A stretch of DNA of 64,000 nucleotides from a bacterium (GCA_027310625.1 DAIDAM010000003.1:2239-66238), one strand, 5' to 3'. Positions 2,158 through 53,645 are shown, counted from the first letter of the stretch. Numbers and translations are program-made. Notes: generated from the sequence alone by a model not told the origin.

Positions 2158-3555
2158 ATGCTTTCGGAATTCCTCGGAGTAATTTGGCAGATAATCTACA
2201 CAGGCGGCACGGGAGTTTTGAATTTCCTCGCGATAAGCTGGTGGCTTTGGACGTTTATAATACTTCTCGGGCTCACTTATTCGGCATGGTTCACGTGGAG
2301 AAAATTCATCTACAAGGAAAAAACCGATTTCATACTGCTGGAAATTAAAATCCCCCGCGAGCTGAAAGAAAATCCGAGGGCAATGGAGCAGGTTTTTACC
2401 GCGGTGCATTCTTTGCGAAACGTCTACAGCACATGGCTGGAGAAATGGTGGGACGGGGAAATAACGCGCTGGTATTCTTTTGAAATAGTAAGTTTCGGCG
2501 GCGAAACGCATTTTTACGTCCGCCTTTACAAAAAACAAAAGTCCCTGATGGAAGCGGCGTTTCTTTCTTATTATCCGGATATCGAGCTGGTGGAAGTTGA
2601 CGATTATATTGACCGTCTGCCGAAAAACGTATCGGAGATGTACGAGCAGGGATACGACATTTGGGGGAGCGAGATTGCGCTGACCAGAGAAGCGGCTTAT
2701 CCGATTAAAACGTACGTTGATTTCGAGTCGTCTCCCGACGAAGAAAAACAGTACGATACAATGTCGAGTTATCTTGAGTTTTTCTCAAGTTTAAAGAAGG
2801 AGGAGATAATAGCTTTTCAAATACTGGTGGCGCCAGCCGACCCCGACTGGTGGGAAAAATGGAAGGGACTTTTGGACAAACTCAACCAAAGAGCGGAAGA
2901 CAAACAAAAATCGGCAACCGCCACTTCCTTCCCGAGCGATTACGCAATCGGGCCGCTGCCGAGGTTTGAAATAGTGAAGCCGACAAAAGACGAGCTGAAA
3001 TTGCTGAAAACCGCTTTCAGAACTCCGGGGGAAACCGCCATCCTTGAAAAAGTCGCCAACAATTTGTCCAAGTTGGCTTTCGACACGACTATCCGCTTTA
3101 TCTATTTGGCGCCGAGGTCGATATATTACGATACCATACCGAGGCGAGGAGTGAAGGGAATTTTAGCCCACTTCGCCTCCCTCGACTTGAACTCCCTGGA
3201 TTACAAAATAAAAACCGACGTCGGTTCTGCGAGAGTGCTTCTCTTCAAGCCGCCGTACATCTTCCCAAAAAAAAGAGCGGAAAAAAGAAAAGCAAGAATT
3301 CTTTATAACTACATTCACAGAGAAATCCCGGAAGAAAATTTCGTCGGCGAAGTAATAACGTCGAGTTTATTCAGCTGGAGTTTTTCATCGAAGCGTTTTG
3401 AAATGAACACGGAGTGCCTGGCGACGATTTTCCATCCGCCGACGTACCTTTCGCTGACGGCGCCCCATATCGAGCGTGTAGAAAGCAAAAAGGGAGGGCC
3501 GCCCGCCGGACTGGCGATTTTCGGCGGCGAAGAAAACGTCGAAAAATTAAAATGA
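2158..3555 (+). CDS. hypothetical membrane-anchored protein (N-terminal 2 TM + ~400 aa soluble domain), upstream partner of ATPase copy 1
   Basis: 465 aa, no recognisable catalytic motif. Hydrophobic N-terminus 'FLAISWWLWTFIILLGLTYSAWF'. Same strand and close spacing with the ATPase at 4212. Confidence 0.5.
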   Translation: MLSEFLGVIWQIIYTGGTGVLNFLAISWWLWTFIILLGLTYSAWFTWRKFIYKEKTDFILLEIKIPRELKENPRAMEQVFTAVHSLRNVYSTWLEKWWDGEITRWYSFEIVSFGGETHFYVRLYKKQKSLMEAAFLSYYPDIELVEVDDYIDRLPKNVSEMYEQGYDIWGSEIALTREAAYPIKTYVDFESSPDEEKQYDTMSSYLEFFSSLKKEEIIAFQILVAPADPDWWEKWKGLLDKLNQRAEDKQKSATATSFPSDYAIGPLPRFEIVKPTKDELKLLKTAFRTPGETAILEKVANNLSKLAFDTTIRFIYLAPRSIYYDTIPRRGVKGILAHFASLDLNSLDYKIKTDVGSARVLLFKPPYIFPKKRAEKRKARILYNYIHREIPEENFVGEVITSSLFSWSFSSKRFEMNTECLATIFHPPTYLSLTAPHIERVESKKGGPPAGLAIFGGEENVEKLK

Positions 3556-3676
3556 CAGTATCTGCCAGTATCCATCAGTATCTACAAGTATCAACCAACA
3601 TCCACAAACATCTCGCCGATACCGATTGATACTCATCGATACTTATTGATGTTGTCTGAATTCGAAGAGTAAAAAC

Positions 3677-4174
3677 ATGGACCAACAAACAATCGTTTAT
3701 CTTTACGAACTTTTCAAAACGATTTTCACCGCCGCCAATGTTTTCTTGCTGGTATTTTTTGTTTTCTTGGTGATAAAGTCCGTAAAATACAGACCTAATT
3801 TCAAAATTGCAGAGGAAGAAAAAAAGGAGATAGTTTACACTCTGGGAAATGTTGTCATCCGCGAACGCTGGCAGTCCATCGTCAATAGGAGCAGAATAAA
3901 TTCTCCCGAAGCGATGAAACTCGCGGTGATTGACGCCGACAACCTTGTTGACGAACTTTTGAAAAGAATGGGTCTGGAAGGGGAGCACATGGCCGACCGC
4001 CTGGAAAATCTCACAACCGAGGACTTCAGAAGCCTCGATCGCATATGGGACGCCCATCGGCTGAGAAACAGATTGGTTCACGAATCGGGATTCGTTGTTT
4101 CACGCGAGGAAGCATGGAAAGCGATTGAGGATTACGCTTCGTTCCTTAAAGAAATAAGGGTGATTGAGGAATAA
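3677..4174 (+). CDS. small hypothetical protein with N-terminal TM helix (possible C-terminal Rx4H HEPN-like motif, weak)
   Basis: 165 aa. TM 'IFTAANVFLLVFFVFLVI'. C-terminal 'RLRNRLVHE' fits an R-x4-H pattern, which is speculative. Sits between the membrane protein and ATPase 1. Confidence 0.4.
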   Translation: MDQQTIVYLYELFKTIFTAANVFLLVFFVFLVIKSVKYRPNFKIAEEEKKEIVYTLGNVVIRERWQSIVNRSRINSPEAMKLAVIDADNLVDELLKRMGLEGEHMADRLENLTTEDFRSLDRIWDAHRLRNRLVHESGFVVSREEAWKAIEDYASFLKEIRVIEE

Positions 4175-4211
4175 CTAATAACTGATGACTGATAACTGAT
4201 GACTTAAATTT

Positions 4212-5651
4212 ATGCCAAAAGCCGGCAAAATTCAGATAATAAAATACGCCCCGCCTCCGCCGGAACTGCCAGTTTACGGAAGAGTGAAAACAAGGGACGT
4301 TTCTTTCGTCGGAAGGACAAACTACGTCGCCGCTCTTGAAGAAAAAAGATTTATTTTCGGGATAAAACGCATAGACCGCAGGCGCCACCTTTACATAATA
4401 GGAAAAACCGGCGTGGGCAAATCGAAGATGCTCGAACTGCTCATGCGGCAGGACATCGCCTACGGATACGGCGCGTGCTTCATCGACCCTCACGGCGACG
4501 TTATTGATTCGCTCCTGGATTTCGTTCCGGAAGAAAGAATGGACGACGTGGTTATCATCGACCCCTCGGACGCGAAACACCCGGTATCTTTCAATCCGCT
4601 CGCAAACGTAATAGCCGATTTCAAGCACCAGTTGGCGCAGGACCTGATTGAAGTGATGCAAAAACAGTTCGGAGCGAACTGGACTCCGCGACTGGAGCAC
4701 GTTTTTCGCTTCAGCGTTCTTGCGCTTCTCGATTATCCGCACGCGACCATGCGCGGAATGATTTCGCTTTTGACGGACAGGAATTACCGACAAAAAGTTA
4801 TCGAATACATAGAAGACGACATGGTGCGGCGTTTCTGGGCTATTGAGTTCGCCGATTGGAGCGAAAAGTTCGACACCGACGCCATCATTCCGCTTGTCAA
4901 CAAACTCGGGCAATTCCTTTCCAACCCGTTGCTCCGCAACATTTTCGGTCAAAAGGAAAACAAAATTGATTTGGACCGCTTCATGAAAGAGAAAAAAATA
5001 ATTTTCATCAATCTTTCCAAGGGACGGCTGGGAGAAGAAAACTCAAGCTTTTTCGGCTCTATGTTTCTGACAAAAATAAAGCAGGCAGGGATGGCGAGGG
5101 CAAGAATGAGGCCCGAAGAACGGGAGGACTTTTATTTGTACGTGGATGAGTTTCATAATGTCGTGACGGACACTTTTGAAAACCTTCTTACCGAATCGAG
5201 AAAATACGGCCTCTGCATAACCATCGCGCATCAGTACTTCGGCCAGCTGACGTCAAGGGTGCAATCGGCGGCGCTGGGAAACTCCGGAAACATAATTGTT
5301 TTCCGCGTCGGCGGTGAGGACGCGGTGAAACTCAAGCCGGAAATGTCGCCCGTATTTGATACGAAAGATATGATAAATCTCGGCACGCAGGAATTTTACA
5401 TAAAGGAAACGATAGACGGCGAAACCTATGACCCGTTTTCCGCAGAAACGCTGAAAGTAATGCCCGCGCCGCATCCGTCTTACCGGGAACGAATCATTGA
5501 GCAGTCGCGCGCGAAGTATTCCATCACCGCCGACGCGGCGAAAAAACTTATAAAAGAGGAGGAGTCGTCAATACTCCGGCATTCCCGCGAAAAAGCGATT
5601 ATAGAGGGTTCAACAAGCGCGGCGGAAAAAGAACCGGAACCATTAATTTAG
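4212..5651 (+). CDS. FtsK/HerA/TraD(VirD4)-superfamily P-loop ATPase (DUF87-like), copy 1
   Basis: 479 aa. Walker A 'IIGKTGVGKS', Walker B 'FYLYVDEFHN', Arg-finger/ATQ-type motif 'RKYGLCITIAHQYFGQL'. Paralogous to 11901-13652, aligning from 'RRHLYIIGKTG' to 'IAHQY'. Confidence 0.8.
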   Translation: MPKAGKIQIIKYAPPPPELPVYGRVKTRDVSFVGRTNYVAALEEKRFIFGIKRIDRRRHLYIIGKTGVGKSKMLELLMRQDIAYGYGACFIDPHGDVIDSLLDFVPEERMDDVVIIDPSDAKHPVSFNPLANVIADFKHQLAQDLIEVMQKQFGANWTPRLEHVFRFSVLALLDYPHATMRGMISLLTDRNYRQKVIEYIEDDMVRRFWAIEFADWSEKFDTDAIIPLVNKLGQFLSNPLLRNIFGQKENKIDLDRFMKEKKIIFINLSKGRLGEENSSFFGSMFLTKIKQAGMARARMRPEEREDFYLYVDEFHNVVTDTFENLLTESRKYGLCITIAHQYFGQLTSRVQSAALGNSGNIIVFRVGGEDAVKLKPEMSPVFDTKDMINLGTQEFYIKETIDGETYDPFSAETLKVMPAPHPSYRERIIEQSRAKYSITADAAKKLIKEEESSILRHSREKAIIEGSTSAAEKEPEPLI

Positions 5652-5698
5652 AATCCAGTATCTAGTATTTAGAATTTGGAACACAAGCAGAGTAGAGG

Positions 5699-6223
5699 TT
5701 ATAAATTCCTTCCTTTCAAAAAATCCCTTAAGGGGGTGGGCGATACGGCGAAGTGCGTCAGAAAACCGAAAATTCCTCCGAGAATTGATGATAAAAGAAT
5801 GTTATTGTATGTTCTTATGAAGAGATAGTGGAAAAGCGCGGAGAAAGCGAGGAATGTAAGAATTAAAACGAGAAGCCCCGAAATAATCGGTGGAGCGACT
5901 TTCTTGCCGCCGATAAAAAGAACGAAAACCACAAAAGCGCTGATGAGCGCGAGCGTCAAACTGAACCCCTGGTAAATATCGTTTCTCGGAAAACCGACTT
6001 TAAGGAAAACGCTCACCTGATAAACGAGAATTATGAGAAAAAGCATCACGCCCGCCCAATAGCCGGCGTTCATCGCCAAGCGGTGCTTTTTTTCCTCCGC
6101 CTTGTCAGCCATCGCTCTTATGAGCCAGATGCAAACCAAAAGAACGATGGGCACGGCGAGCCACACGATAAAATAAAAAACCAACTCCAAAGCGCTAGCC
6201 ATTTTTGCAACTTTATAATACAA
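5699..6223 (-). CDS. hypothetical integral membrane protein (5-6 TM)
   Basis: 174 aa, almost entirely hydrophobic helices. No motifs recognised. Confidence 0.5.
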   Translation of the reverse strand: MYYKVAKMASALELVFYFIVWLAVPIVLLVCIWLIRAMADKAEEKKHRLAMNAGYWAGVMLFLIILVYQVSVFLKVGFPRNDIYQGFSLTLALISAFVVFVLFIGGKKVAPPIISGLLVLILTFLAFSALFHYLFIRTYNNILLSSILGGIFGFLTHFAVSPTPLRDFLKGRNL

Positions 6224-6245
6224 TAAGGGATATTAAATTTCAACA

Positions 6246-7775
6246 ATGAAGATAGAACTCTCAAAAATCGTCAAACCTTCATCGGCTCCGGTGTTTTTGG
6301 TTGATGACGCAAGAAAAATAAAGGAGCACAAACTTTTTAAATTTCTCGGCGCGGAAGACAAAGATTACATCGTAAGGCTCTTTGAAGAAAACGGGGACGA
6401 AGAGTTTCTGCGTTTTATTGTCCTGCCGTCGGGCAAAAAGGCCTTAATCGGCTTTCTCAAAAACAAGAAAACTTCTTTGAGAAAAATGATAATCGCGATG
6501 CGCCGCGTAATTTCCCTTGCACACCGCGAAAAAATAAAAGAAATCGCAGTCAATCTCGGAGATTTTTTGACCGCCGGCTCAAAAAGCGAAGAAATTGCCG
6601 AACTTCTCGGAACGCAACTGGAACTGGCCAATTTTGAGTTTACCGGATATAAAACGGCGCCGAAAGAAGGATGGAATTTTGTCGAACGCGTTTTTGTAAT
6701 CGGTAAGGAAAGCTCACCCTCCAAAATTTCAAAAAGAAATTTAGGAGGGCAAGCCCTCAAAAAAGCGCTCGCCGACGGGAAAATAATCGGCGAAGAAATA
6801 AACAAAGCAAGAGCGCTATCGAATACGCCCGGCGGGGATATGACCCCACAACGACTTGCTGAGGCGGCAAGTCGTGAGGGGCGCAGCGCCGGCTTTCGCG
6901 TGAAGATTCTCAAAGAAGACCAAATCAAAAAACTCGGTATGGGCGGCGTGCTCGGGGTCGCCAAGGGCTCAGCAGAACGGCCGCGGTTCATTATTATGGA
7001 ATATTTCAAAGGAAAGAAAGGCGAAAAACCGGTCGTTCTCGTCGGCAAGGGCGTGACTTTCGACACGGGCGGGTTGAACCTTAAGCCCGACAATTATATC
7101 TACGAGATGCATATGGATATGTCCGGCGGCGCGGCGGTGATTCACGCCATCGCGGCGCTGGCGCGCTTGAAGGTAAAGAAAAATATCGTCGGCTTGGTTC
7201 CGGCGGTTGAAAATATGCCTTCCGGTTCGAGCTATCATCCGGGAGATTTGCTGAAAACGCTCGGCGGAAAAACAATCGAGGTTCTGAATACCGATGCCGA
7301 AGGGCGAGTGATTCTCGCGGACGCGCTTGAGTACGCAAAAAAATACAAGCCGCAACTCGTCATTGACGTCGCGACTTTGACGGGCGCGGCGATTGCGGCT
7401 TTGGGTCAGCGTGCGTCGGCGATTTTTTCTACCGACAAAAAAACAGAAAAAGAAATGATTGACGCCGGAGAAAAAACAGGGGATTACGTTTGGCCGCTGC
7501 CGCTTTGGGAAGAATACGAAGAGGAAATAAAAGGAACATTCGGCGATTTCGCGAATGTCGGCAAAACGCGCTACGGCGGCGCGATAACCGGCGCGGTGTT
7601 TCTCTGGCAATTCGTTAAAAACCAAGCTCCAAGTTCTAATCTCCAAGATTTTCCTTGGGTTCATCTCGACATCGCGCCGCGGATGACGACAATCGAAAGC
7701 GACTCGCTCGCCAAAGGCGCCGCCGGCGCGTCCATCGCGCTTTTAGTAAAGTTTTTACGAGAAGCAAATAGATAG
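6246..7775 (+). CDS. pepA: leucyl aminopeptidase (M17 family)
   Basis: M17 signature 'NTDAEGRVILADAL', 'VGKGVTFDTGG', 'DMSGGAAV'. Length 509 aa. Confidence 0.9.
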   Translation: MKIELSKIVKPSSAPVFLVDDARKIKEHKLFKFLGAEDKDYIVRLFEENGDEEFLRFIVLPSGKKALIGFLKNKKTSLRKMIIAMRRVISLAHREKIKEIAVNLGDFLTAGSKSEEIAELLGTQLELANFEFTGYKTAPKEGWNFVERVFVIGKESSPSKISKRNLGGQALKKALADGKIIGEEINKARALSNTPGGDMTPQRLAEAASREGRSAGFRVKILKEDQIKKLGMGGVLGVAKGSAERPRFIIMEYFKGKKGEKPVVLVGKGVTFDTGGLNLKPDNYIYEMHMDMSGGAAVIHAIAALARLKVKKNIVGLVPAVENMPSGSSYHPGDLLKTLGGKTIEVLNTDAEGRVILADALEYAKKYKPQLVIDVATLTGAAIAALGQRASAIFSTDKKTEKEMIDAGEKTGDYVWPLPLWEEYEEEIKGTFGDFANVGKTRYGGAITGAVFLWQFVKNQAPSSNLQDFPWVHLDIAPRMTTIESDSLAKGAAGASIALLVKFLREANR

Positions 7776-7815
7776 GATAGATTAGGATAATTTGTAAATT
7801 CTTATTTTGTCTATA

Positions 7816-7842
7816 CCCTCATTCGCGCGAATGGTAGAATAA
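7816..7842. promoter_or_regulatory. 27-bp operator/promoter motif CCCTCATTCGCGCGAATGGTAGAATAA (14-bp perfect palindrome CATTCGCGCGAATG fused to a TAGAAT -10-like box), copy 1, ~30 nt upstream of arsR-like gene
   Basis: The identical 27-mer occurs at 10078-10104. A 26-bp perfect-palindrome variant occurs at 8171-8196. All three sit immediately upstream of consecutive genes. Confidence 0.7.
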
Positions 7843-7872
7843 GAAAAGAGGTAAGGCAATCCAATGATATAA

Positions 7873-8148
7873 TTGCAATTGCAAACCATGAAAGAACTCG
7901 AACGAAATTTGAAAGCATTAGCCAATCGCAGGCGGCTGGCCATTTTGAAGTATCTCAAAGAAAATCGCGAAGCGTCGGTAGGCGATATTGCGGCAGAAAT
8001 AAATCTTTCGCTAAAAGCAACTTCAAAACATTTGGGAGTTCTCGCAGCGGCGGATATTGTGGAAAAAGACCAAAGAAGCTCGCAAGTATTTTATCGGCTT
8101 GCTTCTCCCGTAAAATCGGCGGCAAGGCATATTGTGTTACTTCTTTAA
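7873..8148 (+). CDS. ArsR/SmtB-family HTH transcriptional regulator
   Basis: 91 aa. 'NRRRLAILKYLKENREASVGDIAAEINLSLKATSKHLGVLAAADIV' is the classic ArsR wHTH. Confidence 0.85.
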   Translation: MQLQTMKELERNLKALANRRRLAILKYLKENREASVGDIAAEINLSLKATSKHLGVLAAADIVEKDQRSSQVFYRLASPVKSAARHIVLLL

Positions 8149-8170
8149 CTTTAGTGTTTTAACATCTTGA

Positions 8171-8196
8171 TTCCACCATTCGCGCGAATGGTGGAA
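8171..8196. promoter_or_regulatory. 26-bp perfect palindrome TTCCACCATTCGCGCGAATGGTGGAA (operator variant, copy 2) upstream of Zn-ribbon gene A
   Basis: The sequence equals its own reverse complement. It shares the CCATTCGCGCGAATGG core with the copies at 7816 and 10078. Confidence 0.7.
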
Positions 8197-8249
8197 TGTG
8201 GAAAACAAATGGAAAACAAAAAACTTTTGAAACAATCATCAAAAGTAAA

Positions 8250-10064
8250 ATGAATTCCGAAACGAGAAATTGTCAAAACTGCAAGCAGAATTTCGTCATT
8301 GATTCCGATGATTTTGCTTTCTATGAAAAAATGAAAGTTCCGCCGCCGACGTTCTGCCCGGAATGCAGAATGATAAGGCGATTCGTCTGGCGCAACGAGC
8401 GGCATCTTTTCCGGAGAAAAGACGATGCGACCGGAATGGTTCGACCCGGTTCACCACCACAGGAAATTTTCTCGAGTTTTCCGCCGCAGGTAACTGTAAA
8501 GGTTTATAACCATGATTACTGGTGGAGCGACAACTGGGACCCGTCGGACTACGGACGCGATTACGACTTTTCCCGTCCGTTTTTTGAACAATTCAGAGAA
8601 CTGTTTTACAGCGTCCCGTTGCCCGCAAGGAGCGTTTTCGACACAACCAATTCTGAATATTGCGACAACGCTTCTTATGTAAAAAATTCGTATCTTTCTT
8701 TCAATGTCGGATACTTGGAAAACTCCGCTTACTGCGTTACAACCTTCTACAGCAAAGATAATTTAGACCTCTACGAAGCAAGACACGCCGAGCTATCTTA
8801 TGAAAATTACATGTCGGACGAGGCGTATCGCGTCTTTTTTTCCGTTAATATTGAGGATTCAACCGACATCTGGTTTTCGCGAAATCTTATGGGGTGCAAT
8901 AACTGCTTCGGATGCGTGAATCTGCGCAACAAGTCCTATTACATTTTCAACAAACCGTACTCCAAAGAGGATTACTTCGCCTACATAAAACAATTTGACC
9001 TCGGCTCTTACAAAACAAAAGAAGAATTGTTGAATCGCGCCCGCAAATTCTGGATGCAGTTTCCGATGCGCTTCACGCTCGCGATAAACGTCGTTAATTC
9101 CACAGGCGAACACATTGAGCACTCGCGGAACCTGAAAAGGTGCTATTCCATCCACAAAGGAGAAAATATGGCTTACTGTCAAATTTTTGAACCGCCGGGG
9201 GCCGATTCGTACGATTGCACGGTTTTTGGCTGGGGCGCATCGCGGAGTTATGAATCCCTTGTCTGCGGCGAAGAGTGCTATGATTTAAAGTTTTGCATTG
9301 AGTGCTGGCCGAGTTTAACCAATCTTGAATATTCCGCCCATTGTCATTCCTCCAATAATCTCTTCGGCTGTATTGGTTTGAAGAAAAAAGAATACTGCAT
9401 TTTGAACAAGCAATACTCGAAAGAAGAGTATTTCAAACTCCGCGAAAAAATAATACAACATATGAACGAAATGCCCTACATAGGCAAAATCCGAAATCAG
9501 AAATCCGAAATCCGAAACATTGAATACAAATACGGGGAATTTTTTCCGGCGGAGCTTTCTCCGTTCGCTTACAACGAAACACTTGCAAACGACTTCTTCC
9601 CGCTGACGAAAGAAGAAGCGGAGGCAAAAGGATTTCTCTGGCGCGAACAGGAACGGAGGGAATACGAAACGACGATAAACGCTTTGGATTTGCCGGACAA
9701 CATCAAAGACGTTCAGGATTCCATTCTCAAGGAAATCATAAAATGCGGCGACTGCGGACGGGCGTACAGAATAATTGAGATGGAGCTTCAGTTTTACCGC
9801 CGCATCCCGCTTCCGCTGCCGCGAAAATGTCCGGAGTGCAGATTCAAAGACAGATTCAAATTTGTAAACCCGCCGAAGTTGTGGAAAGGGAAATGTCAGT
9901 GCGCGGGAGAAACCAGTGACCAGCGACCAGAGACCAGTTACAGAAACGCTGTAAAGCATTTTCACGGAGCGGAACATTGCCCGAATGAATTTGAAACATC
10001 TTACCAACCCAACAGGCCGGAAATTGTTTACTGCGAAAGCTGTTATAACAGCGAGGTTGCTTGA
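8250..10064 (+). CDS. multi-zinc-ribbon protein A (N-terminal CxxC...CPxCR ribbon, internal Cys-containing repeats, C-terminal double ribbon)
   Basis: Start moved to 'MNSETRNCQNCKQNF' by analogy with paralog B ('MNNETKTCQNCKNQF'); the ORF-track start at 8196 lies inside the palindrome. Motifs 'KVPPPTFCPECRMIRR', 'NCFGCVNLRNKSYYIFNKPYSKEDYF', 'FGCIGLKKKEYCILNKQYSKEEYF', 'CGDCGRAYRIIEMELQFYRRIPLPLPRKCPECR'. Confidence 0.7.
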   Translation: MNSETRNCQNCKQNFVIDSDDFAFYEKMKVPPPTFCPECRMIRRFVWRNERHLFRRKDDATGMVRPGSPPQEIFSSFPPQVTVKVYNHDYWWSDNWDPSDYGRDYDFSRPFFEQFRELFYSVPLPARSVFDTTNSEYCDNASYVKNSYLSFNVGYLENSAYCVTTFYSKDNLDLYEARHAELSYENYMSDEAYRVFFSVNIEDSTDIWFSRNLMGCNNCFGCVNLRNKSYYIFNKPYSKEDYFAYIKQFDLGSYKTKEELLNRARKFWMQFPMRFTLAINVVNSTGEHIEHSRNLKRCYSIHKGENMAYCQIFEPPGADSYDCTVFGWGASRSYESLVCGEECYDLKFCIECWPSLTNLEYSAHCHSSNNLFGCIGLKKKEYCILNKQYSKEEYFKLREKIIQHMNEMPYIGKIRNQKSEIRNIEYKYGEFFPAELSPFAYNETLANDFFPLTKEEAEAKGFLWREQERREYETTINALDLPDNIKDVQDSILKEIIKCGDCGRAYRIIEMELQFYRRIPLPLPRKCPECRFKDRFKFVNPPKLWKGKCQCAGETSDQRPETSYRNAVKHFHGAEHCPNEFETSYQPNRPEIVYCESCYNSEVA

Positions 10065-10077
10065 GTGGAAATTATGT

Positions 10078-10104
10078 CCCTCATTCGCGCGAATGGTAGA
10101 ATAA
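10078..10104. promoter_or_regulatory. operator/promoter motif copy 3 (identical 27-mer to copy 1) upstream of Zn-ribbon gene B
   Basis: CCCTCATTCGCGCGAATGGTAGAATAA, ~50 nt upstream of the start at 10153. Confidence 0.7.
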
Positions 10105-10152
10105 ACAAAACAACAAAATCATAGGCGCTATGACTAGTCATAGCGGTATAAA

Positions 10153-11880
10153 ATGAACAACGAAACCAAAACCTGTCAAAATTGCAAAAACCAGTTTGCC
10201 GTCGAGCCAGATGATTTTGATTTCTACGCCAAAATCAAAGTCCCGCCGCCGACGTTCTGCCCGCCGTGCCGACTGCAGAGGCGGCTGGCGTTTTTCAATA
10301 TTTTCAATCTCTATAAACGGCCGTGCGATTTATGCAAGAAAGATTTCATTTCGATGTATCGAGCCGACACGCCGTACACTATTTACTGCCCGAAATGCTG
10401 GTGGAGCGACGATTGGGATACTTTTGAATACGGCAGAGAATACGATTTTTCGCGGCCGTTTTTCGAGCAATACAACGAACTACTGCATCGAGTTCCGCTC
10501 ATCGGCGCTTCGATAGATATTCCGACAATGGAAACATCGCCGTACACGAACCATGCCGGCCATCTCAAGAATTCTTACCTTTTGTTCCACGTCGATTATG
10601 TCGAAGATTCCGCTTACGGATTTAACACATTCAACAATAAATCATTATTTGACTGTACCAATTTAATTCTATCCGAATTATCTTATGACATAATTCACGC
10701 CTACAAGATATCGCGCTCCGCCGGCTCGCAGGATTTGCTCGAATCCATCAATTGTTTCTTTATGAAGGATTCGGAAAATTGCCAAGATTGTTTTGCGTCC
10801 GCGAATTTACGGAATAAAAAACACTACATTTTCAATGAGCCGTATTCCAAAGAGGACTATTTTGACGAAATCAAGAAATGGAATTTAGGTTCTTATAAAA
10901 TTTATCAAGAAGTTAAAAAACGGGCGGAAGAGCACTGGAAAAAATTTCCGCCAGACCCGATTTATCAAAAATTTGCCATTAATTCAACGGGGAACAGGAT
11001 ATATGAGTCGAAAAACTGCAAGGAATGTTTTGAGGTCTCTTATGCCGAGGACTGCAAATGGGCGATGATGATGTACATTCGGACAATTAAGGATTGTTAC
11101 GACGTCGTCAGTTGGGGAAATAATATGTCGCGTTCGTACGAGTGCTGCAATGTCGGCGAGGATGTTTCCGAAGCGCGGTTCTGCAGCGAATCCGGACTGG
11201 GATTGATGGACGCAGAATATTGCAAACTCTCGACGGGCAACCATCATTTCGGCTGCGTATCCGTAAAGAAAGGCGATTACGTAATTCTAAACAAAAAATA
11301 TTCAGAGGATGAGTACCGGAAATTGCGCGAAAAAATTATCGCGCAAATGAACGAGTTGCCCTACGTTTCAAGGGCGACCAGCAACCGGGGACCAGAGACA
11401 AGGGAGATAATTTACAAATACGGGGAATTTTTCCCGGCGGAAATCAGCCCCTTTGCCTACAACGAAACGATTGCAAATAATTTCTTTCCCTTGGAAAAAG
11501 AAAAGGTCTTGGCGAACAGCTGGCGATGGAACGAACCGGAAACGCACGCCTACTCAATTACAAAACACGCCCAAGATTTGCCCGACCACATAAAAGACGC
11601 CGGTGACGATATTTTGAAAGAGGTAATCGCCTGCGCGAAATGCGGACGGGGATTCAGAATCATACGAATGGAACTCGATTTTCTGCGGCGGATGAATTTG
11701 CCTTTGCCGCGCGAGTGTCCGTTTTGCCGCATCGGCGAGAAATTCAATTACTGGGTCAAAGAATCGCGGCTGGTGAAACGAACCTGCGACAAATGCGGCG
11801 CGGAATTCGACAGCCCGCACACGAAAGAGAACTATCCGAAAATTCTTTGCAAAAAACACTGGCTGGAAGAAGTGGTGTAA
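10153..11880 (+). CDS. multi-zinc-ribbon protein B (tandem paralog of A)
   Basis: 575 aa, collinear with A: 'KVPPPTFCPPCRLQRR', 'YDFSRPFFEQYNEL', 'ANLRNKKHYIFNEPYSKEDYF', 'FGCVSVKKGDYVILNKKYSEDEYRKLREKIIAQMNELPYV', 'CAKCGRGFRIIRMELDFLRRMNLPLPRECPFCR'. It carries an extra CxxC...CPKCWW ribbon where A has lost the cysteines. Confidence 0.7.
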   Translation: MNNETKTCQNCKNQFAVEPDDFDFYAKIKVPPPTFCPPCRLQRRLAFFNIFNLYKRPCDLCKKDFISMYRADTPYTIYCPKCWWSDDWDTFEYGREYDFSRPFFEQYNELLHRVPLIGASIDIPTMETSPYTNHAGHLKNSYLLFHVDYVEDSAYGFNTFNNKSLFDCTNLILSELSYDIIHAYKISRSAGSQDLLESINCFFMKDSENCQDCFASANLRNKKHYIFNEPYSKEDYFDEIKKWNLGSYKIYQEVKKRAEEHWKKFPPDPIYQKFAINSTGNRIYESKNCKECFEVSYAEDCKWAMMMYIRTIKDCYDVVSWGNNMSRSYECCNVGEDVSEARFCSESGLGLMDAEYCKLSTGNHHFGCVSVKKGDYVILNKKYSEDEYRKLREKIIAQMNELPYVSRATSNRGPETREIIYKYGEFFPAEISPFAYNETIANNFFPLEKEKVLANSWRWNEPETHAYSITKHAQDLPDHIKDAGDDILKEVIACAKCGRGFRIIRMELDFLRRMNLPLPRECPFCRIGEKFNYWVKESRLVKRTCDKCGAEFDSPHTKENYPKILCKKHWLEEVV

Positions 11881-11900
11881 AGATGGTATAGTTTTGCGAA

Positions 11901-13652
11901 ATGGCTCCGTTTTTCAAAACCGACAAGCAGAAAGACGTCGTTTATTTCGCGCGCACCGATTTCCGCAATCAGAATCGGCTTTTCGGCATTAAAAGAAAAG
12001 ACCGCCGCCAGCACACGTACGTCGTCGGCAAAACCGGCACCGGTAAAACCGCGCTCCTCAACAATTTAATTGTTCAAGACATCGCAAACGGCGAAGGCGT
12101 CTGCGTCATTGACCCGCACGGCGAGCTCGTCGAGGGATTGCTCGACAAAATTCCGGCCGAGCGGATAAACGACATCATCTATTTCAATCCCGCCGACCCC
12201 GACCACCACATCGGTTTCAACATTCTGGAATTGCCCGACCCGAAATACAAACATCTGGTCGCTTCCGGTTTGATGGGAATTTTCACCAAAATCTGGTCGA
12301 ATGTCTGGTCGGCAAGAATGGAATACATTTTGAATAACGCCGTTTTGGCGCTTCTCGAAAATCCCGGCTCGACTTTGCTCGGCATCAACCGCATTCTTGT
12401 CGACAAGGACTACCGACAGCAAATCATTTCCAACGTCAAAGACCCGGTGATCAAGGCGTTTTGGGTCAACGAATACGAACAGTGGCGCGACCAGTTCCGG
12501 AACGAAGCCATCGCCCCGATTCAAAACAAAGTCGGCCAGTTCCTTTCGACGGCGATGATTCGAAACATCGTCGGGCAGGAAAAAAGCACGATAAACATTT
12601 TCGATTTGATGAACGAGAAAAAAATACTTCTCGTGAATGTCTCCAAGGGAAGAATAGGGGAGGACAATTCGGCGCTTCTGGGCGCGATGCTCATCACCAA
12701 AATTCAGCTTTCGGCGATGGAACGCGTCAGGATTCCCGAAGACGAGCGTCCGGATTTTTATCTTTACGTCGACGAGTTCCAGAATTTCGCCACCGATTCT
12801 TTTGCCGGCATTTTGTCCGAAGCAAGAAAATATCGCCTGAATCTCATCGTCGCGCATCAGTACATCGGACAATTGGTCACCGATGTTTCCACAAAAGTCC
12901 GCGACGCGGTCTTCGGGAACGTTGGGACAATGATTCTTTTCAGAATAGGCGCGGCGGACGCGGAATTTCTGGAAACGGAATTTGAACCGGAATTCGCCAT
13001 TCAGGACATGGTCAATCTGCCGAACTACCGCATTTACCTGAAATTGATGGTTGACGGCATCACCTGCCGTCCGTTTTCCGCGCAAACTTTGCCGCCGTTC
13101 AATCTCGAATCATCGGAGGAAATAAAAGATAAAATCATCGCCGTTTCGAGGAAACTTCATTCAAAGCCGAGCGTGGAAGTGGAAAAGGCGATCAATCGCT
13201 GGAGCGGAATGATGGGCGAAACTGCGGCACAGCTGCCCGGAGCCAAAATGTTTCCGGCTGTTTGCTCGAACTGCGGTAAAAACACCATGGTGCCTTTCGA
13301 GCCGGCGAAGGGCAGACCGGTTTACTGCGACGATTGTTTTGAAAAGATACAATCGGGAAAACTCGCTCCCGTCGGCGGCGCAGGAAGACAGGGAAAACCA
13401 TCGGAAGAATTCTCGCGCGACCTTGCGGAACTCGGAATAGAATTCGAATTCAGAAAACCGCCGGCGAGACGTTTGGAAGAAGTGCCCTCGGCGATTCCCG
13501 TTGAAAGAAAAGGAATTTCGCTCGCGGAATTGAAGCCGCAGGAGGAGAAAGAGAGAAAAGAAAAGACGAAGCAGGCGGGCGAAAAACCGAAAGTGGATAT
13601 AAACGAACTCCGCGAAGCGATAAAAGAATCGCTTAAGAAAGCAGAGGGTTAA
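11901..13652 (+). CDS. FtsK/HerA/TraD(VirD4)-superfamily P-loop ATPase (DUF87-like), copy 2, with C-terminal zinc ribbon and K/E-rich tail
   Basis: 583 aa. Walker A 'YVVGKTGTGKT', Walker B 'FYLYVDEFQNF', 'RKYRLNLIVAHQYIGQL'. C-terminal 'CSNCGKNTMVPFEPAKGRPVYCDDCF' followed by 'KPQEEKERKEKTKQAGEKPK'. Confidence 0.8.
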   Translation: MAPFFKTDKQKDVVYFARTDFRNQNRLFGIKRKDRRQHTYVVGKTGTGKTALLNNLIVQDIANGEGVCVIDPHGELVEGLLDKIPAERINDIIYFNPADPDHHIGFNILELPDPKYKHLVASGLMGIFTKIWSNVWSARMEYILNNAVLALLENPGSTLLGINRILVDKDYRQQIISNVKDPVIKAFWVNEYEQWRDQFRNEAIAPIQNKVGQFLSTAMIRNIVGQEKSTINIFDLMNEKKILLVNVSKGRIGEDNSALLGAMLITKIQLSAMERVRIPEDERPDFYLYVDEFQNFATDSFAGILSEARKYRLNLIVAHQYIGQLVTDVSTKVRDAVFGNVGTMILFRIGAADAEFLETEFEPEFAIQDMVNLPNYRIYLKLMVDGITCRPFSAQTLPPFNLESSEEIKDKIIAVSRKLHSKPSVEVEKAINRWSGMMGETAAQLPGAKMFPAVCSNCGKNTMVPFEPAKGRPVYCDDCFEKIQSGKLAPVGGAGRQGKPSEEFSRDLAELGIEFEFRKPPARRLEEVPSAIPVERKGISLAELKPQEEKERKEKTKQAGEKPKVDINELREAIKESLKKAEG

Positions 13653-13717: not shown

Positions 13718-14443
13718 ATGATTAATCTCTTAACTATGCATTTTGATATTATTACTATCTTCCCGAAGATTTTCAATTCTTTTTTAAAGGAGTCGCTTAT
13801 TAAGCGCGCCATCAAAAAGAAAATCATCGAGGTAAAAATAACGAACCTCAGGAATTTTTCCGACGACAGAAAGCACAGGAAAATTGACGACCGTCCCTAC
13901 GGCGGGGGACCGGGAATGGTCTTACAAATTGGACCTATCTATCGCGCAGTCCAATTTGTAATTTCAAAGTTCTCCGCCAAAGGCGGATCCGCCTCCGGAG
14001 GAAAAGTTCAAAGTTCAAAAACTCGGACAATTCTTTTTTCAACGCGCGGCAGAAAATTTGACGCAAAAACGGCGAAGCGGCTTTCAAAATACGGTTCGCT
14101 TATTCTGATTTGCGGACGCTACGAGGGCGTTGACGAAAGGGTTGCGAAATACATCGCCGACGAAGAAATCTCCATCGGCGATTACGTTTTGAACGGCGGA
14201 GAAGTGGCGGCAATGGCGCTTATGGAAGCGGTAAGCAGATTTTTGCCGGGATTTCTCGGCAAAACGGAATCGCTTGAAGAAATAAAGGGTCATTACGCCA
14301 CTTACACCCGTCCTGCCGAATTCGTCCCCGACGTTTCTTCAAGAAAAAAATTTTTTCCGAGAACGCCGAGGAAGTGGAGCGTTCCGAGCGTTCTTATGTC
14401 GGGACACCATGAAAAAATAAACAAATTGAGAAAATCGCGGTAG
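13718..14443 (+). CDS. trmD: tRNA (guanine37-N1)-methyltransferase
   Basis: 'HFDIITIFP', 'DDRPYGGGPGMV', 'LICGRYEGVDERV', 'SIGDYVLNGGE'. The true start may be the Met at 13736 (MHFDII...). Confidence 0.9.
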   Translation: MINLLTMHFDIITIFPKIFNSFLKESLIKRAIKKKIIEVKITNLRNFSDDRKHRKIDDRPYGGGPGMVLQIGPIYRAVQFVISKFSAKGGSASGGKVQSSKTRTILFSTRGRKFDAKTAKRLSKYGSLILICGRYEGVDERVAKYIADEEISIGDYVLNGGEVAAMALMEAVSRFLPGFLGKTESLEEIKGHYATYTRPAEFVPDVSSRKKFFPRTPRKWSVPSVLMSGHHEKINKLRKSR

Positions 14444-14449
14444 AGCAAA

Positions 14450-15859
14450 ATGCCGATTTACGATGTAGCTTTTTACGGAGCGCTGTCGTTTATTGCAGGG
14501 GCGCTTGCCGCCGGATTGAATTTATCGGCCGCAAAAGCGGTTTTCTTTTTTGCAATCCTCGCCCTTATTCTCGCCTACGTAAAAATCTGGGGAAAATTTC
14601 CGGCTTTTTTCTTCATTTTTTTCTTTGTCTTCGGAACGTTTTATTACAATTTTTTCTTTGCCATCAAAGAATCAAGCCAAAAAATAACTTTTGAAAAAAC
14701 CGTAGAATTTTCCGGAATGATAACAAGCGAGCCGCAACTCAACGAAAAATTCCAGAAAGCGACCATTGAACTTAATCCGCCATTTTCAGGGGAAATAAGC
14801 GTTCTTGCGCCGCTTTATCCTCAAATAAACTACGGCGACGTAATTGAAGCAAAAGGAGAAATAAGGCCATCCGTTTCAAAAAACCAAAGCCCCGTCTCAT
14901 TTTTCCCTGAATTAAAAATCATGGAAAGTCATCGCGGCTTCTGGCTGAAAGAAAAACTTCTTAACATCAAAAAGGGGATGATATCGCAGTTTAGAAATCT
15001 CCTGCCGGGCGATCCCGCGGCGCTTTTAAGCGGCATGACGCTCGGCTGGCGCGGCGATTTCACGGAAAAATTCAAGAAAGAAATGTCCTTGAGCGGCACG
15101 ACGCACATCGTCGCGCTTTCGGGATACAACATAACCATTCTTGTCATCGCCGTCGCCGCCGTTTTCGGCAACTGGCTCTCGCGGAGAATGACGTTTTTCC
15201 TCACCTCTTTCATAATTCTTCTCTTTATTTTTATGGTCGGCGCCGAAGAATCTGTGGTGCGCGCCGCAATAATGGGCTTCATTGCCCTCATTGCAAAGGA
15301 ATCGGGCAGAAGATTCAGTTTCAGGAACGCGATTGCGCTCACGGCGGCGGCAATGATTCTTTTCCGTCCCGATGTTTTATTCGATATCGGATTCATTCTC
15401 TCCTTTCTGAGCTTAATCGGGATAATCTATATCGCCCCGGAGCTGAAAGAGATTTTCAGAATCGGCGAATCGGGAAGTTTTATGTCATGGAAAGAAAACG
15501 CGATAACGACATTGTCGGCGCAGATGATGGTCGCGCCCGTTCTCATAAACGTTTTCGGAAATTTTTCGCTGACGAGCATCGCCGCGAACGTTCTCATTCT
15601 TGAATTCGTCCCGTTGACGATGCTTTTGGGTTTTGTGATCGCCGTTTTCGGATGGATTTTCTATTACGCCGGTTTCATTTTTTCGGTTTTCGGGAATATT
15701 CTTCTCCGCTACGAAATCGGGGTCATAAAATTTTTCGCGTTCTGGAGTATGCCCGTTTTTTCGGGAACACGCTCGCTGATTTTTTCTTTTTTTTATTACA
15801 TTGCATTGCTCGTTTTTCTTCTCTACAGAAAGGAAATTAAATCCCGCGAATTGATATAA
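14450..15859 (+). CDS. comEC: ComEC/Rec2 competence protein, N-terminal part (DUF4131 + competence channel domain)
   Basis: Polytopic membrane protein with 'GTTHIVALSGYNITIL' (the ComEC 'HxxAISGxHv' motif). It ends with TGA 8 nt before the MBL-domain ORF. Confidence 0.75.
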   Translation: MPIYDVAFYGALSFIAGALAAGLNLSAAKAVFFFAILALILAYVKIWGKFPAFFFIFFFVFGTFYYNFFFAIKESSQKITFEKTVEFSGMITSEPQLNEKFQKATIELNPPFSGEISVLAPLYPQINYGDVIEAKGEIRPSVSKNQSPVSFFPELKIMESHRGFWLKEKLLNIKKGMISQFRNLLPGDPAALLSGMTLGWRGDFTEKFKKEMSLSGTTHIVALSGYNITILVIAVAAVFGNWLSRRMTFFLTSFIILLFIFMVGAEESVVRAAIMGFIALIAKESGRRFSFRNAIALTAAAMILFRPDVLFDIGFILSFLSLIGIIYIAPELKEIFRIGESGSFMSWKENAITTLSAQMMVAPVLINVFGNFSLTSIAANVLILEFVPLTMLLGFVIAVFGWIFYYAGFIFSVFGNILLRYEIGVIKFFAFWSMPVFSGTRSLIFSFFYYIALLVFLLYRKEIKSRELI

Positions 15860-15866
15860 TCAAAAA

Positions 15867-16745
15867 ATGTCCGGCAACAAGGGCAAAAACAAACCGGGGA
15901 ATATTATTATTTCCTTCTTTATATTATCAATTGTCGTTGATTTCTTTGTCTGGTATCGCGTAATTTTCGGAGGTTACGAATCGAAACCGAAAGCGTATTT
16001 CCTCGACGTCGGGCAGGGGGACGCCGAGCTCGTAATTTTTCCGGGAAACACAAAGATTCTCACCGATGCCGGGCCCGACTCAAAAATCGTTGGCGAACTT
16101 GAGAAAATTCAGGAACTTGCCGGCAAATACATCGATTTGGCCGTAATAACCCATCCTCAGCTGGATCATTTCAACGGCTTTCTCGGTCTCCTTGATAGAT
16201 ATAATTTCGGCGCATTTATTTACAACGGGCGCTCCGACTCTCAAGAAGGATGGAGTGAGTTAATCGCAAAAATAAAAGAAAAGAAGATACCGCTGATAGC
16301 GCTGAAAGCGGGCGATGTGATAAAAAACGGCGAGAATAGAATAAATTTCCTCTCTCCCGACGAGAATCTCCTCGGGAGCGCGGAGTTGAACGACACGGGA
16401 CTTGTCCAGTTGACGGATATTTCCGGCTTAAAAATGCTTCTTGCGGCGGACATAGGAGGGGAAATAGAAAAATATCTCGCCGAAAATTTTGATTTGAAAG
16501 CGGATGTTTTGAAAGTGGCGCATCACGGCTCAAAATTCTCTTCGTCGGAGGAATTCCTAAAAGCCGTCGGTTCCCGAGTTGCGATAATTGAAGTCGGGGA
16601 AAACAACAAATACGGCCATCCTGCCTCCTCAACCCTTGAAAAACTTTCTGATTTTTCGCCGGCAATCCTGAGAACGGACGTCAACGGGCAGATTATGGCG
16701 CTCTTGGACAACGAAAAACTCAAAATTTTCGCAGAAAAGGAATAA
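15867..16745 (+). CDS. comEC: ComEC C-terminal metallo-beta-lactamase domain encoded as a separate ORF
   Basis: 'YFLDVGQGDAELVIFPGNTKILTDAG', 'VAHHGSKFSSS', 'NKYGHPASSTLEKL' are typical of the ComEC MBL domain. Confidence 0.75.
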   Translation: MSGNKGKNKPGNIIISFFILSIVVDFFVWYRVIFGGYESKPKAYFLDVGQGDAELVIFPGNTKILTDAGPDSKIVGELEKIQELAGKYIDLAVITHPQLDHFNGFLGLLDRYNFGAFIYNGRSDSQEGWSELIAKIKEKKIPLIALKAGDVIKNGENRINFLSPDENLLGSAELNDTGLVQLTDISGLKMLLAADIGGEIEKYLAENFDLKADVLKVAHHGSKFSSSEEFLKAVGSRVAIIEVGENNKYGHPASSTLEKLSDFSPAILRTDVNGQIMALLDNEKLKIFAEKE

Positions 16746-35524: not shown

Positions 35525-36448
35525 ATGATTCTTAATTCTCGATTTGTTTTCTTCGGCACGCCGGAATTTGCCGCAACAATCCTTGAAAAGCTGATAAGTT
35601 CCGGATTTGTTCCGGAGGCGGTTGTCTGCAACCCCGACCGCCCCGTCGGCAGGAAGAAGGTTATCACTCCCCCGCCGGTGAAACTGCTAATTATGAAGCA
35701 GGAAGCAAGAATCAAGAAGCAAGTTAAAATTTTTCAGCCAGAAAAATTAGATAAACAATTTCTTGATTCATTATTCTTGATTCATGATTCTTTTGATTTT
35801 TTTGTCGTTGCCGCCTATTCCCAAATTCTCCCTAAAGAAATAATCGAAATACCGCGGCTCGGAACAATCGGCGTCCATCCTTCGCTTCTGCCGAAATACC
35901 GCGGCGCCTCCCCCATCCAAGGCGCGATACTGAACGGAGAAAAGGAAACAGGCGTAACGCTTTATTTGATGGACGAGAAAACGGACCATGGGAAAATAGT
36001 ATCAAGTATCAGGTATCAAGTATCAGGGAATGAGAATTACAAAACATTGGAAAAAGAACTTGCGGAACTCGCGGGAAATCTGCTTGTGGAAACGTTGCCG
36101 AAATTCATCAAAGGAGAAATAAAACCCGTGCCGCAGGACGAATCAAAGGCGACCTACACGAAAAAATTCACGACTGAAGACGCGTTCATTGATGAAAAAA
36201 CTCTGGAAGAAGCGCTAAACGGAGAAAATGAAGAAACGGCTGAAAAAATCTATCGCAAAATTCTGGCTCTCAATCCCGAGCCGGGAACATGGACGTATGC
36301 GCGAGCACTGGAACATTCCAACGTTCTTGAGAATGTTGGAATGTCGTCTTCCGGCAAACGGATTAAGATTTTGGAGGCAAAAATTGAAAACGGAAAACTT
36401 GTTCTGAAAAAAATCCAGATTGAAGGAGAAAAACCCAAAGCCGTTTAG
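35525..36448 (+). CDS. fmt: methionyl-tRNA formyltransferase
   Basis: 'VFFGTPEFAATILEKL', 'NPDRPVGRKK', 'GVHPSLLPKYRGASPIQ'. Contains short in-frame repeat words (aagaatcaagaagcaag; agtatcaagtatcaggtatcaagtatcag). Confidence 0.9.
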   Translation: MILNSRFVFFGTPEFAATILEKLISSGFVPEAVVCNPDRPVGRKKVITPPPVKLLIMKQEARIKKQVKIFQPEKLDKQFLDSLFLIHDSFDFFVVAAYSQILPKEIIEIPRLGTIGVHPSLLPKYRGASPIQGAILNGEKETGVTLYLMDEKTDHGKIVSSIRYQVSGNENYKTLEKELAELAGNLLVETLPKFIKGEIKPVPQDESKATYTKKFTTEDAFIDEKTLEEALNGENEETAEKIYRKILALNPEPGTWTYARALEHSNVLENVGMSSSGKRIKILEAKIENGKLVLKKIQIEGEKPKAV

Positions 36449-53596: not shown

Positions 53597-53645
53597 ATTT
53601 TTATTTCTTGCCCGGTTGCCGGTCACTGGTTACTGGTCGCTCTTT

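Follow-up and report, generated by a model that had tools for sequence, protein, structure and literature searches.

The subject of this analysis is a locus for two paralogous P-loop ATPases, here called ATP1 and ATP2, in a 64,000-nucleotide stretch of bacterial DNA (GCA_027310625.1, DAIDAM010000003.1:2239-66238; "the window" denotes this whole stretch). Both look like ATPases of the type IV coupling protein (T4CP) kind. An earlier reading, made from the sequence alone (the sequence-only reading), had assigned them to two modules with different partners. Instead, ATP1 and ATP2 belong to a single chromosomal locus that is conserved in Parcubacteria (Paceibacteria), where they are neighbors parted by a variable array of genes for zinc-ribbon proteins. 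All open reading frames (ORFs) were found at the coordinates which that reading had given (Table 1). The only probable change concerns the first zinc-ribbon protein, whose start is most likely 8250 (604 amino acids (aa), as in database entry P0241) and not 8196.

The window proteins were mapped onto 57 loci from species-level related Parcubacteria genomes. Gene order was counted over the loci with enough flanking sequence (48, 46 or 30), the counts for ATP2 proximity and for zinc-ribbon genes being taken from the 30 loci in which 9 kb of sequence was at hand downstream. Most often the order is secF, a gene for a protein with sigma-70 region 4 and HARE-helix-turn-helix domains (sigma4/HARE-HTH), a gene for a DUF8128 protein, a gene for a small 165-aa protein, ATP1, one to six zinc-ribbon paralogs, and ATP2. 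The DUF8128 gene lies directly upstream of ATP1 in 36 of the 48 loci, the 165-aa gene is found between the two in 35/48, and the sigma4/HARE-HTH gene precedes DUF8128 in 33/46. At least one zinc-ribbon gene is present in 26 of the 30 loci. In 17 of these 30 the distance between ATP1 and ATP2 is less than 10 kb, and in several others the zinc-ribbon array exceeds the flank that was fetched. In the clade of the window, ATP1 is separated from the zinc-ribbon genes by insertions of pepA, arsR and a membrane ORF on the minus strand. The earlier view that the partners are more than chance neighbors is borne out both by this synteny in 57 genomes and by the fusions of DUF8128 to an ATPase that are described below.

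Several other candidates for components of the locus were considered and rejected. Small ORFs that some loci have between ATP1 and ATP2 encode riboflavin synthase, lumazine synthase and a nucleotidyltransferase-like protein, and represent unrelated insertions. Where DUF8128 is missing upstream of ATP1, the ORFs at that place are not diverged copies of it; they encode relatives of glutamate dehydrogenase and dihydrolipoamide dehydrogenase, and further housekeeping proteins. An RNA element in the 595-nt gap 3' of ATP1 was ruled out, as the gap holds the minus-strand membrane ORF. This ORF, which lies between ATP1 and pepA, terminates the ATP1 transcription unit in the window genome.

In three distant contexts (L059, L061 and L062), a sigma4/HARE-HTH gene, DUF8128 and then an ATPase are retained despite differing flanks. 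Here the single ATPase adjoining DUF8128 is ATP2-like, with a long K/R/D/E-rich tail that replaces the zinc finger. Since this trio is kept without the zinc-ribbon family or the 165-aa protein (which has a HEPN-like motif), the ancestral unit is sigma4/HARE-HTH, DUF8128 and an ATPase; Paceibacteria duplicated the ATPase and gained the HEPN gene and the zinc-ribbon genes, the latter lying between the two ATPase genes or next to them. The ATP2-like protein of L059 (5141-7318) carries a C-terminal tail of ~300 residues of R/K/D/E repeats ('RDDRDSRNSRDDRDRKPQRDRRDDK', 'KRKRRKRKR'), which recalls nucleic-acid-binding low-complexity tails.

The genes of the locus are not equally conserved. In the 25 loci holding all five genes, the median identity to the window protein is 75.5% for ATP1, 58.8% for SecF, 47.3% for DUF8128, 46.8% for the sigma4/HARE-HTH protein and 39.0% for the HEPN-like protein; the identity of ATP2 to its window counterpart is 65%. 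ATP1 is under strong purifying selection and is the most conserved gene of the neighborhood.

Table 1. Features of the window (positions counted from its first nucleotide)
Feature	Positions	Strand	Remarks
Sigma-70 region 4 + HARE-HTH protein, 343 aa	1073..2104	+	Pfam Sigma70_r4 E 5e-16, HARE-HTH E 1e-8
DUF8128 protein, 465 aa	2158..3555	+	Predicted N-terminal two-helix hairpin and VirB4-N-terminal-domain-like fold
Small membrane-tethered protein, 165 aa, Swt1-like HEPN motif	3677..4174	+	RNxxxH at residues 130-135
ATP1, soluble T4CP-type P-loop ATPase, 479 aa	4212..5651	+	Pfam TrwB_AAD_bind, DUF87, T4SS-DNA_transf, TraG-D_C
Multi-pass membrane protein ORF, 167 aa	5699-6202	-	No Pfam match
ArsR/SmtB-type HTH gene	7873-8148	+	Directly 5' of a zinc-ribbon gene
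Zinc-ribbon/beta-solenoid protein, 604 aa, orthogroup Zn622	8250..10064	+	Mechanical ORF begins at 8196
Zinc-ribbon/beta-solenoid protein, 575 aa, orthogroup Zn575	10153..11880	+	Paralog of the Zn622 protein
ATP2, paralog of ATP1, 583 aa	11901..13652	+	C-terminal zinc finger and charged tail
trmD	13718-14443		Confirmed
comEC part 1	14450-15859	+	DUF4131 and Competence domains
comEC part 2	15867-16745	+	Metallo-beta-lactamase domain
pilB and pilC	54133-56437	-	

The ATPases and the DUF8128 protein

ATP1 and ATP2 are 43% identical across 399 aligned residues (E 3e-128), in an alignment that spans 'RRRHLYIIGKTG'/'RRQHTYVVGKTG' (Walker A) and 'YLYVDEF' (Walker B) and extends to 'IAHQY'/'VAHQY'. 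When 24 members of the family are aligned, the Walker A, Walker B and AHQ motifs show no variation; the invariant positions are G64, G67, G69 and K70 of Walker A, D312 and E313 of Walker B, R330/K331, and Q341/Q345 of the 'AHQY' block. Because of this invariance, both copies look like catalytically competent, T4CP-type ATPases. The Pfam family TrwB_AAD_bind scores 46.3 bits with ATP1 and 51.8 bits with ATP2 (gathering cut-off 20.5), and it covers above threshold an insert of ~240 residues that separates Walker A from Walker B. DUF87 and TraG-D_C (Pfam) also exceed their thresholds with both proteins, as does T4SS-DNA_transf (Pfam), at 27.6 and 26.7 bits (cut-off 20.1). The claim of the sequence-only reading that these are two paralogous members of the FtsK/HerA/T4CP superfamily is thus upheld. 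The VirB4-type ATPase family AAA_10 (Pfam) reaches 15.4 and 17.7 bits, under its cut-off of 27.5, and the curated NCBIfam T4CP models, TraD included, are far from theirs, the best scores being 55.5 bits for CD1115 (cut-off 250) and 62.3 for SXT_TraD (cut-off 366). Models for VirB4 itself do no better, with 11-16 bits for VirB4_CagE (NCBIfam; cut-off 643) and no match to CagE_TrbE_VirB (Pfam). Against structures in the PDB, the family profile finds TrwB at the top (E 1.6e-8), followed by DotL and HerA, and no VirB4 chain at E<=0.01.

The family is large. More than 6,460 homologs of ATP1 exist; among the 120 best, identity to it is 75-100%, and close homologs bear such names as Liptonbacteria, Jorgensenbacteria, Brennerbacteria and Minisyncoccia. 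ATP2 differs in its C-terminus, where residues 449-482 form a CxxC-x17-CxxC treble-clef finger that is recognized both by zf_Tbcl_2 (61.9 bits, cut-off 27, E 4.6e-17) and by TIGR04272 (63.6 bits, cut-off 36, E 1e-17). Zinc binding by a CxxC-x17-CxxC domain has been demonstrated in small proteins of Methanosarcina (PMC12704099). A hydrophobic segment is absent from the N-termini of both ATP1 and ATP2.

Database homologs of the 465-aa protein carry Pfam PF26449, which is DUF8128. A profile search of 1.84 billion representatives yields 2,473 clusters at E<=1e-3, and the top 150 matches are all stand-alone proteins, with no new architecture among them. An AlphaFold2 model of the window protein, made with 46 homologs, is confident (pLDDT 82, pTM 0.79). 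It contains two N-terminal hydrophobic helices (residues 2-26 and 28-55), in agreement with the earlier description of a protein with two transmembrane (TM) segments, and then an alpha/beta domain. Basic residues, read from the sequence, follow the second helix, and the domain is therefore placed in the cytoplasm, as in VirB4. When Foldseek is used with this model, the top nine matches are all TrwK chains (E 9e-5 to 8e-3); TrwK is the best match to the fold among all PDB chains, and the match to VirB4/TrwK was obtained by two methods, Foldseek being one. By this model, DUF8128 carries a VirB4-N-terminal-domain-like fold and a VirB3-like membrane hairpin, and it resembles neither VirB6 nor TraG.

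In other genomes, the DUF8128-like domain and the ATPase are found in one polypeptide. The PHROG profile phrog_5156 has 824 positions; the 465-aa protein matches positions 13-213, and both ATPases match 396-812. Two loci contain a third paralog that unites membrane segment, DUF8128-like domain and ATPase in a single chain (874 aa in L048, 791 aa in L044). The same fused architecture is encoded by Bacillus phages (G gp156, SP-10, SBSphiC, 0105phi7-2 and others), and for one phage record the annotators noted an HHpred match of the C-terminal part to the C-terminal domain of TrwK. Phage G, which like the SP-10-like phages encodes the fused protein, is a jumbo phage. In Bacillus phage 0105phi7-2, a plasmid-like prophage, the gene for the fused protein (L063, 25589-28132) lies beside genes for a ParA/RepA-type partition protein and a RepB primase.

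A short proline-rich peptide recurs at the point where the two parts meet. In the fused proteins the junction has the sequence 'SAPPPVNIP', and ATP1 starts with 'YAPPPPELPV'. The C-terminus of DUF8128 reads 'GxPPxG/NLPI', a peptide that is present in the window protein and is kept even past 100-150 residues of disordered linker; these linkers are proline/glutamine-rich or lysine/glutamate-rich (L059 3371-5137, L061 2670-4319). The C-terminal extensions of longer DUF8128 proteins were considered as sites of a fused HEPN domain and contain none, consisting of disordered linkers that end in the PPxxLPI peptide. The PPxxLP-type peptide resembles a scar left by the fission of one gene into two, and the terminal peptide of DUF8128 is likely to be a docking motif. 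Because fused forms and a shared junction motif exist, DUF8128 and ATP1 are best described as a split motor. The membrane anchor for the ATPase would then come from a separate DUF8128 protein or, in the third paralog, by fusion.

Accessory proteins of the locus

The 165-aa protein has a single N-terminal TM segment. Positive residues are present on the C-terminal side of this segment, and the soluble domain is therefore placed in the cytoplasm. The window protein contains the motif 'AHRLRNRLVHE', and its orthologs share the block 'W.AHRLRN.LVHTPGF', with the R and the H both retained in 35 of 40. Pfam HEPN_Swt1 is matched by 16 of the 32 orthologs scanned (best E 1.1e-4), the window protein giving no match at E<=1, and two orthologs match HEPN_RiboL-PSP. 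The best PDB profile match, in which the HEPN motifs are aligned, is the defence protein ApeA, and it is not significant. The HEPN-like character proposed in the sequence-only reading is thus supported by the motif and by the Swt1-type matches, and it is not proven; nuclease activity is putative. In the sigma4/HARE-HTH protein, sigma-70 region 4 is N-terminal, with residues 12-69 matching region 4 in structures of SigA, RpoD and RpoS. The protein is predicted to bind DNA or RNA polymerase.

The two zinc-ribbon proteins of the window are paralogs (44% identity, E 2e-163), and the gene for the second ends 20 nt 5' of ATP2. In this family, N- and C-terminal treble-clef fingers flank a cysteine-rich, beta-solenoid-like core. 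At least 7,995 proteins belong to the family, and none is named. Among 46 members scanned, 28 match zf_Tbcl (best E 4.9e-5) and 4 match zf_Tbcl_2; a window protein reaches 20.3 bits with zf_Tbcl, under the cut-off of 24. Orthogroup Zn622 is present in 15 loci and Zn575 in 13, with ~60% identity across genomes. There are also many smaller orthogroups, a lineage-specific expansion in L045, and from 0 to 6 copies per locus. In four loci an ArsR/SmtB-type HTH gene is located directly 5' of a zinc-ribbon gene on the same strand (the window, L003 7642-7899, L010 15664-15930 and L026 5872-6138), and the zinc-ribbon gene that follows belongs to different orthogroups in different loci. This HTH protein may be a metal-responsive regulator of zinc-rich proteins.

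A candidate nucleic-acid motor and its alternatives

Like the T4CPs (VirD4, TrwB, TraD and DotL), ATP1 and ATP2 have a P-loop domain with the TrwB_AAD_bind insert and TraG-D_C, and TrwB is their best solved relative. However, unlike T4CPs, their polypeptides are without a TM segment, and the part in the membrane is supplied by a second protein, whose VirB4-like domain of ~400 residues is missing from T4CPs. There are also two paralogs per genome, one with a zinc-finger tail, and the scores with the curated NCBIfam models fall far short. Furthermore, no gene for a relaxase or for a type IV secretion system (T4SS) was found in Pfam scans of selected ORFs from the window and the 57 loci, in which no relaxase or VirB4 profile was used. 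The sequence-only reading had named, as evidence that would speak against it, clear homology to a conjugative coupling protein with a relaxase or T4SS nearby; the homology is clear at the level of domains, but these partial scans contain no such neighbor.

In a comparison with VirB4 (TrwK), the DUF8128 hairpin is followed by a fold that matches TrwK, and the fused paralogs (~790-870 aa) run from hairpin to N-domain to ATPase, as do VirB3-VirB4 fusions. In contrast to VirB4, there is no sequence-level match to VirB4 families, and the locus lies outside any T4SS cluster. TrsD, a stand-alone VirB4-N-domain-like protein of the T4SSs of Gram-positive bacteria and Patescibacteria, belongs with VirB4 as a comparator. 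Thus, the ATPases are closer to VirD4 by sequence, and the fused form is like VirB3-VirB4 by architecture. Since the family combines features of both T4SS ATPases, it is assigned to neither, and the combination suggests a lineage of the VirB4/VirD4 ATPase family. It is a motor of the VirB4/VirD4 type whose split architecture and partners are both new; it is widespread and unusually conserved, and its function is predicted.

A split motor is also known from the mycobacterial type VII secretion systems, in which membrane-anchored and soluble FtsK-like ATPases (EccCa1 and EccCb1) are encoded together, with EccE. The likeness is architectural only: there is no detectable sequence relation, and genes for EccB, EccD, MycP or WXG100 proteins were not seen.

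A survey published in 2025 counted 5,713 VirD4-type T4CP homologs in 2,918 Patescibacteria genomes, about two in each, of which only 148 lie near virB4, and reported that the T4SS clusters elsewhere in these genomes usually have no T4CP (PMC12102498). This survey, the only one of these homologs, left their role open, stated that exaptation "cannot be ruled out", and did not describe the T4CP neighborhood. We infer that the ATPases of the locus are these unexplained orphan T4CPs. Their genes are then given a defined, conserved context (DUF8128, the TM-HEPN protein, sigma4/HARE-HTH and the zinc-ribbon family), and a vague annotation becomes a testable machine.

What this machine may do is suggested by its accessory parts. 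Judged from the sequences, it is plausible, though we would put it at rather less than an even chance, that the locus encodes a membrane-docked, VirB4/VirD4-related motor that moves nucleic acid or nucleoprotein. A hexamer of ATP1 would be held at the cytoplasmic face of the membrane by DUF8128, probably through the 'PPxGLPI' peptide conserved at the C-terminus of DUF8128. Binding and delivery of the nucleic-acid or nucleoprotein substrate would fall to ATP2, which bears the zinc finger and a charged tail, together with the zinc-ribbon proteins and the sigma4/HARE-HTH protein, and the membrane-tethered HEPN domain would process RNA at the same site. The complex could act alone, or it could be the missing coupling ATPase of a chromosomal Patescibacteria T4SS encoded elsewhere. 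Movement of nucleic acid is proposed because the accessory parts (HEPN, sigma4/HARE-HTH, zinc fingers and basic tails) are of a nucleic-acid type. A motor of this kind is a candidate for nucleic-acid trafficking in organisms that rely on external nucleotides.

Several observations weigh against this interpretation. No obvious channel is encoded in the locus, DUF8128 having only two TM helices per subunit, and both the direction of movement (uptake or export) and the substrate (DNA or RNA) are purely inferred. DUF8128 does not adjoin ATP1 in 12 of the 48 loci. The picture of a split VirB4 rests on the fold of the partner, because the ATPases are T4CP-like by sequence and AAA_10 is below threshold. 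The H of the HEPN motif is lost in 5 of 40 orthologs, none of the HEPN matches attains a curated threshold, and the HEPN gene is absent from L059, L061 and L062. For the core of the zinc-ribbon proteins no relative was detected in the PDB, and zinc fingers of this type also serve protein-protein contacts. Finally, the T4CP homolog of Southlakia was reported to be non-essential for epibiotic growth, in contrast to the essential T4SS (PMC12102498).

The last result also counts against the main rival, in which the locus encodes a complex that couples protein substrates to the chromosomal Patescibacteria T4SS. ATP1 and DUF8128 would dock on the inner-membrane complex of the T4SS as a conventional T4CP, and the zinc-ribbon paralogs would be exported effectors or adaptors recognized by ATP1 or ATP2. 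This would fit the T4CP type of the ATPases (by Pfam and NCBIfam), and it would supply the T4SS clusters with the ATPase they usually lack in the very genomes for which these homologs are reported (PMC12102498). In addition, the VirB4-N-domain-like partner could reuse the contacts of VirB4 with the inner-membrane complex, and the variation in zinc-ribbon copy number, with the expansion in L045, is behavior seen in effector families. However, no T4SS gene was seen next to the locus in the selected-ORF scans, and few T4CPs lie near virB4 (148 of 5,713). Moreover, several structural zinc sites and ~60% identity within two orthogroups are atypical of fast-evolving translocated effectors, and HEPN, sigma4/HARE-HTH and the basic tails favor nucleic acid over protein as cargo. 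We consider coupling of protein substrates somewhat unlikely. An FtsK-like housekeeping motor, an anchored hexamer that pumps chromosomal DNA at division, or while it is transferred into daughter cells, with sigma4/HARE-HTH recognizing the DNA, is quite improbable. It accounts for the housekeeping-level conservation of ATP1, its fixed place beside secDF and the retention of a DNA-binding, multi-HTH partner even in distant lineages, and the superfamily does include FtsK and SpoIIIE. Nevertheless, FtsK_SpoIIIE (Pfam) scores only 15.4 bits with ATP2 (cut-off 24) and does not match ATP1, the gamma domain (Ftsk_gamma, Pfam) is detected in neither, and the HEPN protein, the zinc-ribbon family and the second ATPase are left unexplained. 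A search of the literature on FtsK in Parcubacteria returned nothing usable.

The sequence-only reading had offered HerA-type defence with unknown effectors as its alternative. In an anti-phage module of this kind, the ATPases would be sensors or motors, and HEPN, possibly with the zinc-ribbon proteins, would supply the effectors. As in HerA systems (HerA-NurA; HerA-Sir2, HerA-DUF4297 and MADS), DUF87 is above threshold and there is an adjoining nuclease-like partner, HEPN being common among defence effectors and ApeA being the best, though not significant, structural match. PADLOC reports matches to mad8 (E 1e-11 to 1e-15), and the copy number of the zinc-ribbon array varies. However, the PADLOC matches to HerA models are short, local stretches in the P-loop or Walker B region. 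The curated NCBIfam models are far below their cut-offs (helicase_HerA 11.9 bits against 970, HerA_antiphage 13.4 against 800), and a HAS-barrel N-domain was not detected at the level of sequence. Almost universal and syntenic, the locus stands among housekeeping genes beside secDF rather than in variable islands, and its ATP1 is more conserved than SecF; this pattern of conservation, together with the fixed position, argues against a defence island and makes a defence function very doubtful. Least probable of all, to the point of being barely credible, is that unrelated neighbors have stayed together only because gene order decays slowly in small genomes. It is true that secF is also retained upstream, that the unrelated pepA, ribEH and nucleotidyltransferase genes have entered some loci, and that a quarter of the loci scored (12/48) have no DUF8128 beside ATP1. 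Yet DUF8128 and the ATPase are fused in some genomes, the trio survives where the flanks differ (for example, in L061), the partners have the 'PPxxLP' junction motif in common, and ATP2 and the zinc-ribbon family bear the same type of treble-clef finger.

Under a more specific version of the nucleic-acid motor, the DUF8128-anchored ATP1 would pull RNA or DNA of the host or the environment into the cell, HEPN would cut the incoming RNA on the cytoplasmic face, and ATP2 and the zinc-ribbon proteins would handle the polymer afterwards. Such a feeding route is unlikely. If it exists, it would be a source of nucleotides for bacteria unable to synthesize their own. It would also provide the uptake step that is stated to be unresolved in a 2026 preprint on a cultivated Patescibacterium that takes up, and feeds on, host RNA (bioRxiv 10.64898/2026.06.21.733656). 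Passages of a 2025 review present the T4SS of Patescibacteria as a remarkable newcomer and describe a comEC deletion that abolished competence and left viability intact (PMC12857230); the tolerated loss of comEC in Southlakia, as described there, would be explained by the feeding route as well. The sequence-only reading had noted trmD-comEC nearby and pilus genes on the same contig, both of which are confirmed, and had taken them as a toolkit for DNA uptake. That argument is weak, since only 6 loci have comEC within ~5 kb of ATP2, at least 8 others with sufficient sequence lack it downstream of ATP2, and the pilus genes are 40 kb away.

Other features of the window

A scan of the whole window with hidden Markov models of the locus families, which are unable to detect VirB4, found no members beyond the known ones. 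No RNA family was found by Rfam in positions 1-30000, and a scan for promoters and terminators gave a signal no higher than that of shuffled controls. The division of comEC into two adjacent ORFs is also seen in L008, L027, L035 and L056. Upstream of pilB and pilC there are minus-strand ORFs (36445-38544, 39481-40515 and 52121-53626) whose products, predicted to be surface proteins, bear cohesin, dockerin and LVIVD-repeat domains and may represent an apparatus for attachment at the cell surface of this bacterium, which has a small genome. Also on the minus strand, at 59548-61059, a gene for an Eco57I-type (type IIG-like) N6-adenine DNA methyltransferase adjoins a release factor gene.

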